64,000 nucleotides of DNA from a virus (taxonomy: Duplodnaviria; Caudoviricetes): positions 96,001 to 160,000 of IMG/VR virus record IMGVR_UViG_3300037484_000235, one strand, 5' to 3'. Positions within the stretch are counted from its first letter, which is position 1; each line of letters begins with the position of its first letter. The notes beneath the pieces were generated by a model. The model did not search any database. It was not told the origin of the DNA and was given only the letters and a program-made list of their open reading frames with translations. The translations under genes and the position numbers were made by a program. This document shows positions 2,588-37,964 of the stretch, piece after piece.

Positions 2588-4228
2588 ATGATGCACAATC
2601 TGAAAATCGCCGGTACCTGGGACGAGATGGACGTTGTGGCTCGGGCACAATTCTTCGAAGGCTACCTGCATGTACGCCCATTTGGCCTGATTCGAGGCGC
2701 CAAGGGCAAGACCCAGCTCCTGAGGATGATTGAGAAGTCGCTTCAAGAGGTGGGTGGGACCCCCAATCCGGAGTGGACCTCCAAGCTCGACACCAAGTTG
2801 TACAGGGCCGTGTTCAACTCCGTCAATAAGGTCATCCGGTCTCAGGGCGGAGAACGCTCAATGGAGTCGACGGACGTCCTTCAGAACATGATGGGCCTGA
2901 GCGGTTGGGAGGACGAAGAAGGTGAGACGATTGAGATGGGTGGCAAGTCTCCCTTCTGGCTGGCTGGGAAGTACATCTCGGAGCACAGCCCTGAGAATCT
3001 CTTGTCCGGGAAGATGACACCTAATGATGCGGCTGGTCTTGCGATCAAGATTGCATACCGTCGGGCATTGGATGTGGTCCGTCAAGAATCGGACCGCACT
3101 AAGAAGCGTCAGGAGAATGAGGAGACGATCCTCGATGAGACTACTGGCCTTTCGGATTCGGATGATGATGACTGGAGTCAGGTCGTCAATGCCATCTTTG
3201 CAAATCCGGACAATCAGATTTCCAAGCGCTTCTTCACTTGGCTCACGAACAAAATTTCAGTGATCATGCGTCGGGGTGAAGGTGCACGACTCATCACTCA
3301 GTACCTTGAGCTATTGAAGGCTGGGGTCGTGAAGACGGATACCGAAGCCGCAGAGGCCCTGGGGACATCTTCGTCTGGGATTTCCAACACCAAGAAGGTG
3401 TTCACCGAATCCATGATGGTGTACCTCAAGAACAATCCACAGGCTCGGGAAGAGCTAGAAGATATGTTCTCGGATGCGCAGTTCTTCAGTAAGCTCTTCC
3501 GTGGAGATGTTGGGTACAATCCAGCCAACTCCGCTCGAAGGTTCGAGCATCGGATGGCCAAGAAGATTGCAGCCAGGTATATGGCGCAGCTTGCTGAAAA
3601 GACCGCAGCGGACAGCTTCGAGCTGGTGTACTCAACCGGCGGCCATGGGGGTCCCTACCACAGTGAGAAGGAAGCCAAGGACCGAGCCGAGAAACTCCTT
3701 AAGGGTGGCCAGGACCGATGGATTGCGGTAGTCCCAGCAGCGCAAGTCACGAACTTGACCAAGGCCAAGGCGGCGTGGATTCTCTATCGTGACAAGGGAT
3801 GGAAGAAGGGCCCAGATCAACTTCCAAATGTGTCCTCACGGGACCACAACCGAGAGCAGGATTTGAAGTCGGCTTCCCAGAATTTCACACAGCACACAGG
3901 GAAGGTCTACAAGTTCAATAGGGATGTCAGACTCAAGGATACATCTACCATCCCCAAGGGCTGGGAAGTCACTGTCGAGTATGATGGTCGTTCGACAGAC
4001 ATTGCTTTGGTCTCAACTGTGGTCCCTTTCCTGGCGTCTCCCGTGAGGATGAAGATCACCACGCTCTCTAAGGTGCTCGATGGGTATCCAAAGATGCCAA
4101 GCGTATCTGCGTTGGAGAAGATGTCCATGAAGGGAACGGCAACGACCCCCTCAGGAAAGCGCACGGATCCGGATGGATTTGCGGACGACGGCTCGCCCAG
4201 CTGGCTTCTCGTTGCTGGCGTAATCTGA
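2588..4228 (+). CDS. multidomain protein with sigma-like core and appended small domains
   Basis: AIKIAYRRALDVVRQE and TDTEAAEALGTSSSGISNTKK resemble sigma regions 2/4; KKIAARY..EKTAA linker; C-terminal PDG..SPSWLL domain. Confidence 0.5.
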   Translation: MMHNLKIAGTWDEMDVVARAQFFEGYLHVRPFGLIRGAKGKTQLLRMIEKSLQEVGGTPNPEWTSKLDTKLYRAVFNSVNKVIRSQGGERSMESTDVLQNMMGLSGWEDEEGETIEMGGKSPFWLAGKYISEHSPENLLSGKMTPNDAAGLAIKIAYRRALDVVRQESDRTKKRQENEETILDETTGLSDSDDDDWSQVVNAIFANPDNQISKRFFTWLTNKISVIMRRGEGARLITQYLELLKAGVVKTDTEAAEALGTSSSGISNTKKVFTESMMVYLKNNPQAREELEDMFSDAQFFSKLFRGDVGYNPANSARRFEHRMAKKIAARYMAQLAEKTAADSFELVYSTGGHGGPYHSEKEAKDRAEKLLKGGQDRWIAVVPAAQVTNLTKAKAAWILYRDKGWKKGPDQLPNVSSRDHNREQDLKSASQNFTQHTGKVYKFNRDVRLKDTSTIPKGWEVTVEYDGRSTDIALVSTVVPFLASPVRMKITTLSKVLDGYPKMPSVSALEKMSMKGTATTPSGKRTDPDGFADDGSPSWLLVAGVI

Positions 4229-4233
4229 TCCGT

Positions 4234-4704
4234 ATGCAGCCAAGTGCACGGCGCGTAGCAGCCCGTCACCTGGCTGCTGAGGCAGAGGATGCGGAGCAGT
4301 TCCTGGAGGGATTTCTCCGTAGGCACCCTGTGATGCGCACCCTTGTGCCAAAGAGGGTACGGAACAAGATGCCAACATCGAGCCATCATCACCCAGAAGC
4401 GTCTCAGGAGGGTTTGGAGATCTGGCTCTTCCCGAAGTTCTGGGCCCTGGACAAATCCACCAGAGACTTCGTGATGGCCCATGAAATAGGCCACTTTGTC
4501 CTTTCTGAAAGAGGCGGCCTCATCAAGTTGGTCCCAACAGGGGCCGACCTCGGTCTAGATCTGTGGGACACGTCATCCCTTCCATTTGGTCAGGAAAACA
4601 TGGAAGAGGCATTTGCAGACTCTTTCGCGACGTACTACCTAGCTCGACAGGAACTCGCGCGGCGGTACCCTTTGTGGGTGAAACTCATTGAGGCCACGGT
4701 CTGA
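4234..4704 (+). CDS. zincin-like metallopeptidase (HExxH)
   Basis: MAHEIGH plus downstream EEAFADSFATYY. Confidence 0.7.
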   Translation: MQPSARRVAARHLAAEAEDAEQFLEGFLRRHPVMRTLVPKRVRNKMPTSSHHHPEASQEGLEIWLFPKFWALDKSTRDFVMAHEIGHFVLSERGGLIKLVPTGADLGLDLWDTSSLPFGQENMEEAFADSFATYYLARQELARRYPLWVKLIEATV

Positions 4705-5459
4705 GGATGCCCCCGGCTGCTCGTAAGGCACCCAGATAGGCGGTCAGACGAGCTTGGACCACCAAGCAGTACCCATACGGATCGTCTACGGTTCTGGAGG
4801 CCCCTAGGGGCTCAGACGAATTTCGCACAAATTTCTGGACAGGTGCCGAAAGCTCCCGTATACAGGCATCGGTTCTCTCACCTGACTTCGCCCAACAGGG
4901 GGTTGCCAGGTAGCGAAATTCCCTCCCGGCTGGATCTTCCCCTTGATTTATCAAGGAAACGAATAGCCCGGGGTCAGATGAGCACCCTTCCAACAGGGAC
5001 TCTATGGGGTTCGGACCCGAAAGGGTTGCAGAGGTCAGTACCAATCCTGACCAGGGCGCTGCCGATAGAGCTTCCCGTCTGAGAAATCGTTCTCCAGGGG
5101 ATCACCACAAAGGACCCGTGACGAGATGGCCTACGTAAGAGGCCCTCAGAGGTAGTCCCTCTGGTTCTTCGGGACAGACCTGTCGCAGCTGTCAACCTCC
5201 CACTCCTGTTGGTGGTCCAACTCCCCTGAAAAGGAGAACAGACCAGAAGGAAAAGGGTCTTACCGTAAGGAAGACCCAGAAGGGAAGAAAGGTAGATAGT
5301 TGATCGTGTTAAGCCACTATGTGAATCCTGATTCGAATCCACATACCTACTCATATACCTCTTCCTCTTGTAGTAGCCACACACGCAACACGCCTTCAAC
5401 AAGCTGCATTCATCACACGTGGGATTCGAATAGCCTGTTAGTAGAGTCCTGTTAGCAGA

Positions 5460-22340: not shown

Positions 22341-23299
22341 GCGAGGAGAACACCACACCCGTTCTTCTCGTGGGCGGTTCCGATGAGTATCAGCGTCGAA
22401 GGCTGGTCAACAAGGTCGTAAGCACTCGGCGTGGCGAGGGGTGGAGCGTCATGCCTGTCGACGGCAAGGAAGAGGGGGCGTTGAACCCCGTGTTCGCCAT
22501 GTCTTCGATGTTCGAGGGGTCGACCTTGTGTGTGGTGAGCAATCCAGAGAAGCTTCCGGTGGCCGTTGTAGCCGACCACATACAGTCCCCGGATCCTAAG
22601 GTGGTGTTGCTCCTGGTGGCTGAGGGCGACAAGCTTTCCGGACCCATCTTTGATCTGGTGCCCAAGGGGTGTGTGAAGACCTTTGCCCTTCCCCCGTTCT
22701 ACAAGCTCGACGAACATGCTGCGGCCTTCGTGCAGAACGAGGTAAAGGCCCGGGGGAGCAAGATCGAATCGGGGCTGGCTTCCTCCTGGGTTCGACGCGT
22801 CGGGAATGACCTTGGGGTGTTGTCGTTTGAGGTGCAGAAGGCCGTGCTGTTTGCGGGTGATGGGGTTGAACTAACTGCTTCCCACCTGAGAGAGACCCTC
22901 GCGGCTCTTTCAGAGACGGATGGATCTGCGGTCTTGGAAGCTCTTGGAAGGAAAGATTCTAAGCACCTATCCATGGAGATGCAGAAGTACCGTCAGTCCA
23001 GGGGCGGGGACCCTACGATCGAGCTGTGTGGACGTACTTTGACTCCGTCCCTTACTCGTTGGCTTCAAGCTGCACACCTTGCCCAAGCCGGAATGTCCTC
23101 GGCAGCAGCAGCTGGAAGTGTGGGGGCAAACCCTTGGTACTGGGAGCACAAGATTCTTCCTTACGCAATGCGTTCTGGGGTCGTTGGGTGTGCTCGCATG
23201 CTCGGTATCGTGGCAGACGCACAGACCCTGGTCTTCCGTGGCGGGATCAATCCGTTTGCCTATCTGGAAGCCTCTTTTCTGGCCTTTTTTCAGGGGTGA
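22337..23299 (+). CDS. holA: DNA pol III delta-like subunit
   Basis: LLVGGSDEYQRRR..RVGNDLGVLSFEVQKAVLF..AVLEALGRKD. Confidence 0.75.
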   Translation: MSEENTTPVLLVGGSDEYQRRRLVNKVVSTRRGEGWSVMPVDGKEEGALNPVFAMSSMFEGSTLCVVSNPEKLPVAVVADHIQSPDPKVVLLLVAEGDKLSGPIFDLVPKGCVKTFALPPFYKLDEHAAAFVQNEVKARGSKIESGLASSWVRRVGNDLGVLSFEVQKAVLFAGDGVELTASHLRETLAALSETDGSAVLEALGRKDSKHLSMEMQKYRQSRGGDPTIELCGRTLTPSLTRWLQAAHLAQAGMSSAAAAGSVGANPWYWEHKILPYAMRSGVVGCARMLGIVADAQTLVFRGGINPFAYLEASFLAFFQG

Positions 23300-23513
23300 C
23301 GGTTCTCCCTCTCATTTTCCTATAGACCTCCCTTCTTACGAACCCAGTGCCGAGTTCGGGGTGTCAGCCTGGTGCAGTTCTCTTGGAGTGGCGGAGAGAA
23401 CTGCGGCTGAGATTCAGATGACAACGCCACGATTCCGCATCCGCACAAATGGAGCCCCCATGAGCGACGCAGGTTCTCTTTTCCCTAATCTCCAAATCGC
23501 AAACGGGGTTCAC

Positions 23514-25445
23514 ATGAAGAGCGATGGTGCGTTTTCGTTTCCCAATCTCTTGAGTGAGTTTGTCTACACTCGAACGTATGCACGATGGATGGAGTCGGAA
23601 AAGAGGCGGGAGAATTGGCCCGAGACGGTGGACCGCTACGTCGATTGGATCTTCCGGGGAAAGAACGTTCCCAGCTACCTTCCAGAGCGGGTGCGTCACG
23701 CGATCTTGAACCTCGATGTGCTCCCCTCGATGAGAGCTTTGTGGTGTGCTGGAGAGGCGATGGAGCGAGACAACACCTGCGGGTACAACTGCTCATTCCT
23801 TCCAATCGACAATCTCAAGGCATTCAGTGAGGCACTCTACATTCTCATGCAGGGTACAGGGATTGGCTACTCTGTCGAGAGCACTTTCATCGACAATCTC
23901 CCAGTGATATCGGAGTCCACTGGGGAGTCCGTCGACTACATGATCGGGGACTCCACTGAGGGTTGGGCGGATTCAGTGTACTTCGGTATCACTGCTTTCC
24001 ATCGTGGTCAGGACGTCAAGTTCCATTACGACAAGATCCGACCCAAGGGCTCACGTCTCAAGATCAAGGGCGGCCGTGCATCGGGCCCTGAGCCCCTTAA
24101 GAGGGTTCTCGATTTCGCGAAGGCTACGATTCAGGGTGCTGCGGGCCGTCACCTCAAGCCAATCGAAGCACATGACATCATGTGCATGATTGCAGAGATC
24201 GTGATGGTTGGTGGATTCCGTCGTGCAAGTCTGATCTCGTTCTCGGATCCAGATGATACCGAGATGCGTCATGCGAAGGATTGGAGCCTTGGGCAGTTCC
24301 CAGAGATTCGCTACATGGCGAACAACTCCGCTCTCTACACGGAGAAGCCCACCCGAGAGCAGTACGACCGGGATTGGAAGGCTCTTGCAGAGAGTGGTAG
24401 TGGCGAGCGCGGGTTCTACATCGCTTCGGAGGAAAAACGCCAGAAGCGGGGTGGTGATTTCCGGAGCAATCCATGTGGTGAGATCCTTCTCCGCTTCAAG
24501 CGTGCCAATGACCCCTGGACCGGTGAGGGTGGTGGGGGCCAGTTCTGCAACCTGGCAGCTACGGTTATGCGTGCCCACGACACGTTGGAGACCATGGCCG
24601 AGAAGGTCAAGCTTGCGACTTGGATTGGCGCAGTCCAGTCGAGCTACACACACTTCCCGTACCTTCGCCCTGCTTGGGCGGATCTGTGCAACGAGGACCG
24701 CCTCCTTGGTGTAGATATCACGGGCCAGTGTGATAACCCGGCCCTCTCTGGCGACGAAGAGGCGATGAGCTACCTGAACGCCACGGCGCGTGCTACAGCG
24801 ATCATCGCTGCGGATGCCCTTGGCATCAATCGTCCTGCGGCAGTTTCGTGTGGTAAGCCCAGCGGCAACAGCTCCCAGTTCGTGGACTGTGCGAGTGGGT
24901 TCCACTCTCGCTACTCGAAGTTTTATCATCGGCACGTTCGGATCTCAGCAAAGGATCCTCTCTTCCATCTCATCCGTGACGCGGGTGTGCCCGTCTTCAA
25001 GGAAAACGGTCAGGCTCATTTGGAGGATCACGAGGTCGATGTCTGGGTGGCTAGATTCCCTGTGAAGGCCCCTGAATCGGCCATGACTCGGAATGACGAG
25101 AAGACCCTGGAACAGCTCGAACGCTACCTGAAGATCATGCGTTCGTGGTGTGGTGACAAAGGTCACAACCAGTCCGCTACAATCTACGTCCGTGAAGGCG
25201 AGTGGGAAGCGGTTGGGGAGTGGCTGTGGGAGCACTTCGATGAGGTGACGGGCCTGTCGTTCCTTCCGTATGATGGCGGAAATTACACTCTCGCTCCCTA
25301 CGAGGAACTCACAGAAGCTGAGTACCTCCAGTCGGTTTCGGAGATGCCCAATCTCAACTTCAAGAAGCTAGCTCGATACGAGGCAATGGACTTGGGCGAA
25401 GGTGCTCAGGAGCCCGCGTGCATGGGTGGAGCTTGTCTAATCTAG
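23514..25445 (+). CDS. nrdJ: class II (B12-dependent) ribonucleotide reductase
   Basis: VYTRTYAR, PSMRALW, YNCSF, SNPCGEI, FCNL, KPSGNSSQ, C-terminal ACMGGAC. Confidence 0.93.
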   Translation: MKSDGAFSFPNLLSEFVYTRTYARWMESEKRRENWPETVDRYVDWIFRGKNVPSYLPERVRHAILNLDVLPSMRALWCAGEAMERDNTCGYNCSFLPIDNLKAFSEALYILMQGTGIGYSVESTFIDNLPVISESTGESVDYMIGDSTEGWADSVYFGITAFHRGQDVKFHYDKIRPKGSRLKIKGGRASGPEPLKRVLDFAKATIQGAAGRHLKPIEAHDIMCMIAEIVMVGGFRRASLISFSDPDDTEMRHAKDWSLGQFPEIRYMANNSALYTEKPTREQYDRDWKALAESGSGERGFYIASEEKRQKRGGDFRSNPCGEILLRFKRANDPWTGEGGGGQFCNLAATVMRAHDTLETMAEKVKLATWIGAVQSSYTHFPYLRPAWADLCNEDRLLGVDITGQCDNPALSGDEEAMSYLNATARATAIIAADALGINRPAAVSCGKPSGNSSQFVDCASGFHSRYSKFYHRHVRISAKDPLFHLIRDAGVPVFKENGQAHLEDHEVDVWVARFPVKAPESAMTRNDEKTLEQLERYLKIMRSWCGDKGHNQSATIYVREGEWEAVGEWLWEHFDEVTGLSFLPYDGGNYTLAPYEELTEAEYLQSVSEMPNLNFKKLARYEAMDLGEGAQEPACMGGACLI

Positions 25446-34964: not shown

Positions 34965-35567
34965 ATGACTGACCTCAACAAGATAGCTCAGACTTTCTCC
35001 GCTCACATGTGCTCGAAGTTTGGAGCCACGGTCCACCACAAGGAAGACGCCACCGAGATGAAAGCCATCGCTTGGGGGATGGACCTTGGACGTTGGGCGG
35101 GAATCGGCGGGCTCGCATCGAGTTCCGACTTCATGACCCACTACACGACGACGATCGGCACGGCGATCTACATGCCGGAGTCACATCGGAGTCGGCCCCT
35201 CACGTTCATTGAGGTCTTGACCCACGAGTGCCAGCACGTCTTGCAGTTCAAGGAGTCGGGGATCAAGTTCGCGTGGCTCTACCTTAAGGAGCCAGAGGCC
35301 CGGGTCAAGTACGAAGTGGATGCCTATGCAGCGGGGGCCGCGATTCAACAGTGGTTCACTGGAACTCTTGATGGGTCCGATCGAATCGTGTCTCTGCTGG
35401 TGGCTGGGTACCATCTTCGTCAAGAGGATGCGGACCTTGCAGCGGACATGCTCAAGTCACACTTGGTGTCCCTCAAGAATGGGATTGTGATGGCTGGGTC
35501 CGCCCGTGAGGCAATCGCCTTTTTCAAGGAAAACTATCCAGAGCTGTATGGGACTGTTCGCCAGTAA
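34965..35567 (+). CDS. HExxH metallopeptidase-like protein
   Basis: VLTHECQHVLQ..KYEVDAY. Confidence 0.7.
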   Translation: MTDLNKIAQTFSAHMCSKFGATVHHKEDATEMKAIAWGMDLGRWAGIGGLASSSDFMTHYTTTIGTAIYMPESHRSRPLTFIEVLTHECQHVLQFKESGIKFAWLYLKEPEARVKYEVDAYAAGAAIQQWFTGTLDGSDRIVSLLVAGYHLRQEDADLAADMLKSHLVSLKNGIVMAGSAREAIAFFKENYPELYGTVRQ

Positions 35568-35583
35568 GGCGTAACAACTCACC

Positions 35584-37683
35584 ATGACTGACTCTCCTTG
35601 GGTGCTGCATCACGAAGACTGTCTGGTAGCAATGGCATCTATGGAGTCTGATTCCATGGATGCCATCGTTTGTGATCCTCCGTATGAATTATCGAACGAC
35701 GGCAAGGCAAGCCCCTACAGGGTCTTTGCGGAATTCATGTTCCCACAGGATGCGAAGATCAATCCCATGCTTGGAAGCGAGGACGAGCTTCCTTTCCTCG
35801 TAAATGAGGTTCTTCAATTGCGTGGTATTGGCGTTGTCCCAACTCCAGCGACCCCCGTGCCAGTAAGTTCCGTGACACTCGATGACGAGGCGTCTCACGG
35901 GGACGAGGATATCAAAAACGCATGTGAATGTGCCATTCCCTCGACGAATACTGACTTGAGTGAGAAGGTCGAATCCGAGAGTGCGAAGTACTTGGGCTGC
36001 TTTGCTTTCGAACTTGCTGACTTTGGATCCCTCTGTCAAACGCTTGATTGCGTCGGCGCGGGCTTTATCTCTGGCGGTCTCGGGATAGGGTTTCGGATTA
36101 GCCCTGCGAGTGCACCAAGCCTTCTTGGATGCTGCGATGCGATCTACAATAGCGACCATGGCGTAGGGGGCCGAGACGATGCGCTTACGCAACTTGTAGG
36201 CATGCTCTCGCGAGCAGAACATGTCCCCGTGACGAGACTTCACTTGACACGGGGATCGTTGGAATGTTTTGCCACAGACAGCGCACTGGTATTCCTTGCT
36301 GTTTTCCTTCTCAGTGGCGCGAAGTTGGTACGAGCAGATGCGGCTGCAAGTCGTTTGCCTTCCATGCTTGAGACGCGTCGGATCCGCGTTGTAGATGCGA
36401 TGACAAACAGGGCACTCACGTTCGACTTGGTCCTTCATCCAACAACCATAACATCATTCGGATTTATGGGCAAGGAGTGGGATGGCCAGAAGGTGGCTTT
36501 CAATGTGGACCTGTGGAAAGAGGCTCTGCGTGTCGCAAAGCCTGGTGCCTATCTCCTCGCGTTTGGCGGGACACGAATGGTTCATCGTCTTGCATGTGCG
36601 ATTGAAGACGCAGGCTGGGAGATTCGTGACACAATCGCGTACATGTACGGTGTTGGATTTCCAAAGAGTCTTGACGTAAGCAAGGCGATCGATAGAGAAT
36701 TGGGGGTCCCCCAAGAAGTGTCCGGCAAGGGTCAAGCAGTTGACCGTATTGCGTTGGACTACGGTGGCGCAACAGGTAAAGCAAAGAATGGACTCAAGTC
36801 TGAGTTTTCCACGAGCAGCGAGTGCAATACGGATGCAGCCAGTCAATGGGTTGGTTGGGGCACTGCGCTCAAGCCAGCCCACGAGCCGATCATCTTGGCG
36901 CGTAAGCCTCTGATCGGCACGGTCGCCGCGAACGTGCTTGCACACGGCACAGGTGGGATCAACATCGACGGGTGTAGGATCGCTGGGTCTGTTCCAAGTG
37001 TGACTGGGCAGGGGTTTAAGACTGGCAAGTACGGTGGACAGATTGGACGTGGTGATCCTACACTTACTGGGCAAGCGTGGGAAGGTAATAAGGATGGGCG
37101 TTGGCCCGCGAATGTGGTTCTTGGCTGCGCGTGCGAAACGCCGCACGAGCCTGACTGCGCAGTGGCACTGCTAGACGCGCAGACTGGCACTCTTGGGAGT
37201 TCTTACCGACCAGATAGGGCCCCCCTAAAGTCCATGGGATTTTACGGTGGAAATGGGGAAGCTGTTAGGGATGGATTTGATGACGTAGGAGGAGCTTCCC
37301 GATTCTTCTACTGCGCCAAAGCCTCGCGCTCGGAGCGCACGCACGGCGGACAGGTAGTCAATCTACACCCCACCGTCAAACCCATCTCACTCATGAGGTG
37401 GCTCTGCCGATTGGTGACCCCTCCCGGAGGAACCGTCCTTGATCCCTTCACGGGCTCTGGCTCCACTGGAGTAGCTGCTATCCTCGAAGGATTCCTCTTC
37501 GTCGGCTGTGAGAAGGAATCGGAGTCCGTCGAGACATCCAGGTCACGACTTGAAATGGCTACCCTCGTCGCAACCGGTGGTGTCAAGAACCCCTGGGAGG
37601 ATGATCCACGGGAGCCTACTACCGTGAAAGATACTCTGCCCATTTCCTCGATTGAAGACCTGTTTGGCTTCGGGGATGCGTAA
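35584..37683 (+). CDS. beta-class N4/N6 DNA methyltransferase with ~256-aa insert
   Basis: DPPYEL..GFMGKEWD..KPGAYLLAFG..HPTVKP..VLDPFTGSGSTG. Confidence 0.9.
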   Translation: MTDSPWVLHHEDCLVAMASMESDSMDAIVCDPPYELSNDGKASPYRVFAEFMFPQDAKINPMLGSEDELPFLVNEVLQLRGIGVVPTPATPVPVSSVTLDDEASHGDEDIKNACECAIPSTNTDLSEKVESESAKYLGCFAFELADFGSLCQTLDCVGAGFISGGLGIGFRISPASAPSLLGCCDAIYNSDHGVGGRDDALTQLVGMLSRAEHVPVTRLHLTRGSLECFATDSALVFLAVFLLSGAKLVRADAAASRLPSMLETRRIRVVDAMTNRALTFDLVLHPTTITSFGFMGKEWDGQKVAFNVDLWKEALRVAKPGAYLLAFGGTRMVHRLACAIEDAGWEIRDTIAYMYGVGFPKSLDVSKAIDRELGVPQEVSGKGQAVDRIALDYGGATGKAKNGLKSEFSTSSECNTDAASQWVGWGTALKPAHEPIILARKPLIGTVAANVLAHGTGGINIDGCRIAGSVPSVTGQGFKTGKYGGQIGRGDPTLTGQAWEGNKDGRWPANVVLGCACETPHEPDCAVALLDAQTGTLGSSYRPDRAPLKSMGFYGGNGEAVRDGFDDVGGASRFFYCAKASRSERTHGGQVVNLHPTVKPISLMRWLCRLVTPPGGTVLDPFTGSGSTGVAAILEGFLFVGCEKESESVETSRSRLEMATLVATGGVKNPWEDDPREPTTVKDTLPISSIEDLFGFGDA
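35689..36438 (-). mobile_element. antisense Zn-finger plus Vsr/DUF559-like endonuclease nested in the MTase
   Basis: CPVC/CAVC fingers; SKFE..FDILVPVRRLVIECHGTYWH..LRILWEHE. Confidence 0.85.
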
Positions 37684-37691
37684 GGTACATC

Positions 37692-37964
37692 GTGTCAGAC
37701 ATGAAGACCCGAATCGAAGTTGCGATCAAGAAGCGCGATGAATTGAATGCTCAGAAAGAGCGCATGCTTGGCCGACTAGAAGAGGCCGAGAAGAATCTCG
37801 AAGCTCTTCGTACTGAGTGTCGCGCAAAGAATGTGGATCCAGACAGCCTGGATGACACTGTTTCCAAACTAGAGAAGGGTCTAGCAGATTCCCTCACCGC
37901 ATTGGAATCCCAAATTGTAGTGGCAGAGAATGCCATCAAACCGTACACACAACCGCAAGAGTGA
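37692..37964 (+). CDS. small coiled-coil protein
   Basis: heptad pattern, SD TAAGG. Confidence 0.7.
   Translation: MSDMKTRIEVAIKKRDELNAQKERMLGRLEEAEKNLEALRTECRAKNVDPDSLDDTVSKLEKGLADSLTALESQIVVAENAIKPYTQPQE

Follow-up and report, generated by a model that had tools for sequence, protein, structure and literature searches.

Background

How can a complete endonuclease gene lie directly behind the catalytic motif of an enzyme's gene and yet leave that gene open from end to end? This question is raised by a locus within the 64,000-nucleotide (nt) stretch of viral DNA analysed here (positions 96,001 to 160,000 of IMG/VR record IMGVR_UViG_3300037484_000235, termed here the window), where a DNA methyltransferase (MTase) gene runs, immediately after its catalytic motif, through 256 extra codons whose opposite strand encodes a homing endonuclease gene (HEG). 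The window is part of a 252.5-kb viral contig that is about 57% complete and that probably comes from a jumbo phage.

The received view is that HEGs persist in essential or useful genes solely as passengers of a self-splicing intron or intein. This locus, together with its relatives, constitutes strong comparative evidence for a third route, in which the HEG lies antisense to its host gene and in codon register with it, three replaceable codons are avoided, and the complement is translated. The explanation favored here, and considered likely on the basis of comparative sequence data, is that the element is a codon-registered antisense mobile HEG and that the MTase tolerates the translated complement as an insertion in a loop, with neither an intron nor an intein being involved.

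Anatomy of the locus

The features of the locus are as follows (coordinates are those of the window; the basis for each assignment is given in parentheses).

35584..37683, plus strand: MTase open reading frame (ORF), 699 amino acids (aa), beta-class N6_N4 type, open across the insert (ORF list; Pfam PF01555)
35584..35691, plus strand: N-terminal part of the host protein, 36 aa, with catalytic motif IV (DPPYEL) at its end (sequence; homologue alignment)
35689..35691, both strands: codon common to both genes, read as TTA for the Leu of DPPYEL on the plus strand and as TAA, the HEG stop, on the minus strand (sequence)
35692..36459, plus strand: insert of 768 nt (256 codons) with no stop in the MTase frame (sequence; insert-free homologues)
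35689..36438, minus strand: HEG, 249 aa plus stop, with CxxC zinc ribbons and a Vsr-like PD-(D/E)xK nuclease (ORF list; profiles; structural model)
36439..36459, minus strand: HEG leader, 21 nt, the sole part of the insert outside the HEG ORF (sequence; the 21 nt are constant in the close family)
36445..36453, minus strand: putative promoter, an extended -10-like box TGTTATGGT that ends 6 nt before the HEG ATG (sequence; cross-locus motif)
36460..37683, plus strand: C-terminal host segment, from GFMGKEWD through motifs HPTVKP and FTGSGSTG (sequence; alignment)

Thus the MTase reads ...VCDPPYEL (the DPPYEL codons being GAT CCT CCG TAT GAA TTA, with last nucleotide 35691), continues for 256 codons, and then resumes with GFMGKEWDG... 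(GGA TTT ATG GGC for GFMG, with first nucleotide 36460) and the remainder of a normal beta-class enzyme. The HEG ORF, which runs from 36438 to 35689, is in codon register with the host frame--that is, its codon position 1 lies opposite host position 3, and position 2 opposite position 2. An earlier reading made from the letters of the sequence (termed here the first-pass annotation) had described an endonuclease gene placed antisense and in frame inside an MTase, with the TAA of the former coinciding with the TTA of DPPYEL; the ORFs, the junctions, the 256 extra codons and the shared codon at 35689-35691 are all as it described. The insert-free motif that it proposed, DPPYELGFMGKxWD, likewise agrees with the alignment, in which about 70 viral loci carry an uninterrupted DPPYELGFMGKSWD or DPPYGLSFMGKxWD.

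The same insert occurs in 13 other close loci, where it is 765-768 nt long, and its length is divisible by three in every case. In 14 of 14 insert-bearing loci the HEG stop is the Leu of DPPYxL, with codon TTA or CTA; among insert-free alleles, just 7 of 69 have TTA or CTA for this Leu. A few divergent lineages instead have the HEG stop at a host Ser codon one or two positions further on.

Selection for an open host frame

Because the host stop codons TAA, TAG and TGA face TTA, CTA and TCA in codon-registered antisense, a host stop opposite the HEG arises solely at these three codons (termed here forbidden codons). TTA and CTA (Leu) and TCA (Ser) all have synonyms, and therefore the HEG can keep any amino-acid sequence, the cost being one of codon choice; conversely, the same register causes the stop of the HEG to read as Leu or Ser in the host frame.

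For a single locus an open frame arising by chance would be acceptable. The forbidden codons make up 1.64% of codons in this genome, which corresponds to a 1.6% probability that 249 codons are open; 3.7% of in-register antisense windows of 256 codons are open in this genome, with at least one such window in 13 of 76 long genes; and the chance openness of one such locus comes to 1.6-4.8%. The first-pass annotation had itself cautioned that in-register antisense frames are often open here, and its example, 24051-24935, is indeed such an ORF (294 codons, opposite a 788-aa gene at 23079-25445). Since 3.7% of windows are open by chance, the window alone proves little, and the comparative data carry the case.

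A search with the read-through protein found 28 further MTases that are open through a homologous insert (35-55% identity), including one from a Massilia prophage. Because such a search finds open frames solely, it was repeated from the HEG side in three samples. A scan of viral contigs, made with the HEG and then with a profile of it, yielded L002, L094 and L096 (61-65% identity), L097 (37%) and L098-100 (34%), as well as L101, which carries a different nuclease tail; in all of these the element lies between DPPYxL and GFMGKxWD, antisense and in register, with 0 host-frame stops. The host frame is open too in three loci where gene callers had chosen the HEG over the MTase. A metagenome scan by HEG protein, which is blind to the host frame, gave 80 loci, from which near-duplicates were then removed. 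Among the resulting 36 distinct embedded HEGs (GC content 0.38-0.65), TTA or CTA accounts for 0 of 566 Leu codons and TCA for 0 of 604 Ser codons, whereas in 18 distinct non-embedded relatives of equal mean GC content the corresponding counts are 68 of 321 and 35 of 337 (forbidden codons 0/1170 vs 103/658; Fisher p = 8e-49).

Local codon usage leads to the same picture: 14 elements together should contain 62.8 forbidden codons and have 0 (product of P(0) = 2e-31), with L091 (GC content 0.40) and L097 expected to contain 9.6 and 11.1, respectively, and containing none. The HEGs use forbidden codons at 0 of 157 Leu and 0 of 161 Ser positions, as against 14 of 76 and 12 of 80 within the flanking MTase exons of the same loci, and the other two antisense frames contain 5-28 stops across the loci checked (7-28 in embedded loci). 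Even HEGs that are just 32-41% identical to that of the window (232-301 aa) share its site and its register, and they too leave the host frame without stops. How far the arrangement extends is indicated by a profile search with the sense translation of the insert, which matched 174 clusters at 50% identity (100 of these at E<=1e-10); in most of the 174, the matched protein has 550-1200 aa and the match begins at about residue 30-60.

These sequence comparisons strongly support the view that the open host frame is selected rather than fortuitous and that the arrangement is widespread; chance is ruled out by the comparative codon counts. They also bear out the first-pass suggestion of a selfish element neutralised by read-through: every HEG of the family found at the DPPY site avoids TTA, CTA and TCA, while relatives elsewhere do not.

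The host methyltransferase

The MTase matches Pfam PF01555 at 85.4 bits (cutoff 26.7), and its motif order is that of the beta class, with DPPY at residues 31-34 and FTGSGSTG (motif I, FxGxG) near the C-terminus. The core of an AlphaFold2 (AF2) model of the whole protein matches CcrM (6PBD), M1.HpyAVI, M.BceJIV, MboIIA and RsrI, and the strand directly before DPPY has a predicted local distance difference test score (pLDDT) of 92. An alignment of 29 insert-bearing proteins, about 45-50% identical overall, shows no variation at DPPY or in more than 30 other MTase columns. Judged by this alignment, the MTase appears to be under selection as an enzyme, since its catalytic and S-adenosylmethionine (SAM)-binding motifs would not otherwise stay invariant or nearly so at that level of identity; the insert-bearing protein is presumably active.

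Other MTase alleles show further peculiarities. P0005 (L087, about 3850-4300) and P0008 (L088, about 4650-5150) have in common an extra in-frame insert of about 170 aa before HPTVKP, and P0025 (L092) has one of about 190 aa between LKPA and HEPI; no obvious antisense HEG accompanies either insert. Two metagenome contigs look like decaying hosts: L122 has DQPYEL in place of DPPYEL beside an intact HEG, and L184 has a shortened MTase remnant with stops beside an N-terminal fragment of the HEG. P0006 and P0012 are truncated insert-bearing alleles.

The embedded endonuclease

Within the insert, variability follows the HEG. Column entropy by HEG codon position is 0.82/0.53/1.15, which is a normal coding pattern and which peaks at HEG position 3 (i.e., at sense codon position 1). 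Compared pair by pair, the HEGs are on average 59% identical, as are the MTase cores, whereas the sense translations of the insert average just 41%. By these measures of sequence variation, the HEG frame is the selected frame within the insert.

The HEG protein has two or three CxxC zinc ribbons in its N-terminal part and, in its C-terminal part, the block VFD...ECHGxYWHGGRW; the invariant residues D176, E187 and H189 can be aligned with the catalytic block of Vsr. It matches PHROG families annotated as homing or HNH endonucleases (3e-12) and, weakly, Pfam Vsr (E 0.002; 18.5 bits against a gathering score of 27); its profile match to PDB sequences is marginal (E about 0.5). An AF2 model built on 10 homologues (mean pLDDT 69) finds its best PDB matches in Foldseek among Vsr (1CW0, E 5e-4; 1VSR) and the catalytic domain of I-Bth0305I (3R3P; Foldseek probability 1.0, TM-score relative to the target (TMt) 0.69), so that, as modeled, the nuclease domain has a Vsr-type fold. 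The Vsr/DUF559-like nuclease that had been proposed from the sequence thus receives support from the weak Pfam match, from PHROG and from the predicted fold. A scan of genome contigs with the HEG profile gave no confirmed match.

Expression and mobility of the element

In the close family the leader consensus is GATGCTATAnTTTGnGG-ATG, corresponding to TGnTAnnnT ending 6 nt before the start codon. Among 33 distinct metagenome elements, TAnnnT lies 5-8 nt before the start in 13 and exactly 6 nt before it in 11, where about 2 would be expected by chance (an estimate); many others of the 33 have a plain Shine-Dalgarno sequence. This motif suggests that the HEG is transcribed from a promoter of its own and that its mRNA is leaderless in the close family.

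The phylogenies of the HEG and of the MTase conflict: the HEG data reject the MTase-supported clade L096+L084+L088 (p-AU 0.008), a clade that was picked after the trees were seen. L084 and L089 have MTase cores that are 80% identical and yet have the least similar HEGs (51%); GC content at third codon positions is 0.49-0.75 in the HEGs vs 0.45-0.88 in the exons, the former following the host poorly; and in a groundwater run the element occurs, at about 93% nucleotide identity, joined to a different upstream exon. Together these patterns fit ongoing homing between MTase alleles.

A near-perfect 16-bp hairpin at 35632-35666, in the N-terminal coding region of the MTase, lies 23 nt past the HEG stop on the minus strand. 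It was rejected as a conserved terminator of the antisense transcript: its minimum free energy has z = -3.7 in the window and is not significant in the other loci, which lack the hairpin.

Relatives of the HEG (35-38% identity) also occur free-standing, just upstream of an MTase gene that points the opposite way (L103, 2300-2450; L104, 2330-2420; similar metagenome loci are L149, L150, L154, L155, L160 and L174). The frame of the adjacent MTase breaks by -1 directly after DPPYD or DPPYG (stop TAG or TGA) and resumes at L..FMxKDWD, and these MTases also carry a canonical intein in YG|C...N|SGFPKS. In L002 (IMGVR_UViG_3300044904_000300, 1616-2660) the MTase with the antisense HEG is interrupted again before HPTVKP by a second zinc-ribbon/Vsr-like HEG (1942-2643; 233 aa), which lies on the same strand as the MTase and at which the MTase frame stops; motif I is found in a separate 109-aa ORF, and Rfam reports no intron. 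This second interruption could be a split gene or an unrecognised intron.

Proposed mechanism

The preferred explanation can be set out as follows. The 21-nt leader with its -10-like box and the 249-codon gene for a zinc-ribbon, Vsr-fold nuclease would together form a compact mobile element, which sits in the loop directly after motif IV of a jumbo-phage MTase, on the opposite strand and in codon register. The HEG, by avoiding TTA, CTA and TCA, would keep the host frame open, and its stop would be hidden as a host Leu codon. The MTase would then be made as a single 699-aa chain with a 256-aa 'mirror' polypeptide in a surface loop of naturally variable length, and no RNA or protein splicing would be needed. 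The HEG would be expressed from the antisense strand (through a putative promoter and a leaderless transcript) and presumably cuts insert-free alleles at a candidate site, DPPYEL|GFMGK, so that the element is copied in (homing).

Several points weigh against this explanation. The whole-protein AF2 model is poor (mean pLDDT 58.6; predicted TM-score 0.44), and the 256 extra residues stand directly after the catalytic DPPY. The loop after DPPYxL differs in length among beta-class MTases (CcrM vs RsrI), and tolerance of an insertion at this position is plausible. Synonymous conservation within the HEG is 0.527 observed vs 0.415 expected, as compared to 0.407 vs 0.396 in the exons (p = 8e-9), and this excess could point to a further constraint for which the explanation has no need. 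A strict sigma-70 scan did not flag the proposed -10 box in the window. A search of sequencing runs found the stretch in no RNA run, and contigs from DNA runs cannot show splicing. Finally, protein-level removal of the insert would also require an open frame, and thus openness alone leaves room for a protein-splicing or proteolytic step.

Is the insert removed?

This last point bears on the alternative that survives best, namely that the insert is removed after all--either by a ribozyme that overlaps the HEG or by non-canonical protein splicing or proteolysis--to give a mature MTase with a normal DPPYELGFMGK loop. The insert does lie in a catalytic loop, where introns and inteins typically home; its boundaries are exact and conserved, and its first residue is a near-invariant Ser. 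Antisense Vsr-like endonucleases are, moreover, known from true inteins (bioRxiv 10.1101/2025.01.02.630785).

An intron is argued against on three counts. Rfam scans of the window (35300-37900, E<=10) and of L002 (1400-5000, E<=1) found no intron family; just 21 of the 768 nt lie outside the HEG ORF, whereas a group I or II intron has about 200 nt or more of structured RNA, leaving no space for a ribozyme; and RNA splicing would not select for an insert that is stop-free and divisible by three in length. A group I or II intron was accordingly rejected.

An intein was rejected as well. No intein or Hint Pfam family matches any of 29 sense-frame inserts at E<=0.1, and a profile search of the sense insert against PDB sequences found no related solved structure; there is no room for a Hint domain, because the HEG ORF takes up 249 of the 256 codons; and the predicted secondary structure is mixed alpha/beta rather than all-beta as in HINT domains. 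The junction residues are likewise wrong for an intein: the insert is followed by an invariant Gly (GFMGK) rather than by Cys, Ser or Thr, and the last residue of the insert varies among loci (F, T, S, K, M, H or R), in agreement with the first-pass observation that a His-Asn/Cys-Ser-Thr end is missing. The near-invariant Ser at insert position 1 would suit an intein, whose first residue is Cys, Ser or Thr, but it is also what the opposite strand dictates, where the HEG has a conserved Arg codon at its C-terminal end.

The first-pass annotation had also pointed to an inverted repeat with 8 of 9 matches at the two junctions. The repeat exists (35679-35687 vs 36454-36462), although its left arm does not begin at 35678 as had been reported; the accompanying idea that it might juxtapose the junctions does not hold up, as the 13 other loci have 5-7 of 9 matches at shifting positions. 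Likewise, neither unrecognised RNA or protein splicing, which the first-pass annotation had offered as an alternative to read-through, nor membership of the insert in a known intron or intein class, which it had named as a contrary outcome, finds a counterpart in the Rfam and intein/HINT searches or in the residue that follows the insert. Removal of the insert is, on this evidence, unlikely.

Does the sense strand encode a functional module?

A second alternative, which is judged quite improbable, is dual coding: the sense 'mirror' polypeptide would fold or function in its own right as part of the MTase, and both strands would be protein-selected over about 750 nt. If so, the module may, for example, modulate DNA binding or MTase activity, and the locus would represent a natural full-length sense/antisense gene pair kept in more than 100 phage lineages. 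Consistent with this, parts of the sense insert are modeled by AF2 with pLDDT 70-85 and with regular alpha/beta elements; the excess of synonymous conservation in the HEG points the same way, as does third-position entropy at invariant 4-fold codons (1.14 in the HEG vs 1.55 in the exons, p = 0.056).

The sense frame, however, is less conserved than the HEG (41% vs 59% identity) and is most variable at its own codon position 1; in none of 29 members does its translation match a Pfam family, and it also lacks a structural match. The elements predicted for the sense insert occupy positions that mirror (residue 267-i) those of helices and strands in the HEG itself, as would be expected from complementary hydropathy and inherited covariation. 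They are therefore read here as an echo of the opposite strand rather than as an evolved fold, and AF2 confidence, because it attaches to elements that mirror those of the HEG, was discounted as proof of a real fold. The synonymous excess is explained equally well by a younger, horizontally moving HEG.

Is the methyltransferase dead?

The weakest alternative--that the MTase is functionally dead and its frame open by chance, or solely to spare downstream genes from transcriptional polarity--can appeal to the 3.7% of antisense windows that are open in this genome, to the frequent dispensability of phage orphan MTases (PMC11855218) and to the few decayed-looking alleles (L184 with stops, L122 with DQPYEL, and the truncated P0006 and P0012), but it is very improbable, inasmuch as chance is excluded by the Leu and Ser codon counts in the 36 embedded elements and their non-embedded relatives, catalytic and SAM-binding motifs remain invariant or nearly so despite the overall divergence, and polarity alone leaves the conservation of the C-terminal 400 aa unexplained.

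Relationship to known systems

The codon-registered antisense HEG, read through as part of the MTase, most resembles the ShiLan domain, a hidden HNH endonuclease within an in-frame, non-splicing insert of actinophage N6/N4 DNA methylases (Gosselin et al. 2023, PMC9957025; Arsenault, Gosselin and Gogarten 2025, PMC11855218). Both have a phage MTase of family PF01555 as host, a stop-free insert that is read as a retained loop, a complete HEG in a different reading frame, no sign of an intron or intein, and a patchy, horizontally transferred distribution. The ShiLan endonuclease differs in that it is encoded in frame 3 of the same strand, belongs to the HNH type and occupies another insertion site, and its translation is unexplained; by contrast, the HEG of the window lies on the opposite strand in codon register and directly after DPPYEL, has a predicted Vsr fold and putative transcription and translation signals of its own, and has its stop within a host Leu codon. 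The window element works like the ShiLan domain but is not homologous to it, and the more recent ShiLan paper (PMC11855218) mentions neither antisense, Vsr nor DPPY.

The second precedent is provided by inteins with antisense LAGLIDADG or Vsr-like (EDxHD-like) endonucleases (bioRxiv 10.1101/2025.01.02.630785; Gorbalenya 1998, cited there). Here too a Vsr-like gene lies on the antisense strand of an insert through which the host frame reads without stops. These inserts, however, have Hint domains on both sides, are removed from the protein, and reside in polymerase, minor capsid, terminase and thymidylate synthase genes, whereas that of the window has an MTase as host, consists of HEG over 249 of its 256 codons, and has neither Hint blocks nor a terminal Asn and +1 nucleophile.

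As to the nuclease itself, I-Bth0305I of the EDxHD family and E. coli Vsr (3R3P; 1CW0, 1VSR) share its fold and its D...ExH...WH block. I-Bth0305I differs in being encoded in a group I intron (with homologues in inteins), and the sequence similarity of the window HEG is marginal; relative to I-Bth0305I and Vsr, the HEG adds the two or three N-terminal CxxC zinc ribbons. Free-standing HEGs of the T4 Mob/Seg type ('genes in pieces') resemble it as selfish nucleases that act at a conserved coding motif without a ribozyme, and relatives of the window HEG are also free-standing beside MTase genes (L103, L104 and similar loci); Mob/Seg HEGs, though, interrupt or flank a gene, whereas the window HEG leaves one continuous host ORF.

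Hence the principle has already been published, both for ShiLan (2025) and for antisense Vsr-like genes within inteins (2025 preprint), and the locus combines the two ideas; no report of an antisense HEG that is read through in an MTase, without an intein, at the DPPY loop was found among open-access papers and bioRxiv. The locus extends the ShiLan arrangement in that it involves the antisense strand, another nuclease superfamily and the catalytic DPPY loop, and in that its phages are environmental and jumbo ones. In practical terms, gene callers annotate one long MTase here and miss the endonuclease entirely; for MTase 'insert domains' that have no homologues, the other strand is worth checking. 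If the 699-aa enzyme is active, then beta-class MTases can accommodate 256 additional residues in the loop that follows motif IV.

The two arrangements may also be found side by side. On the minus strand of L110 (logan SRR28401846 contig, about 1300-2400), one MTase contains two hidden endonucleases and has a frame that is open through both: an antisense Vsr-like gene after DPPYEL and a same-strand, out-of-frame HNH gene (ShiLan-like) between GFPKS and GTALKPA.

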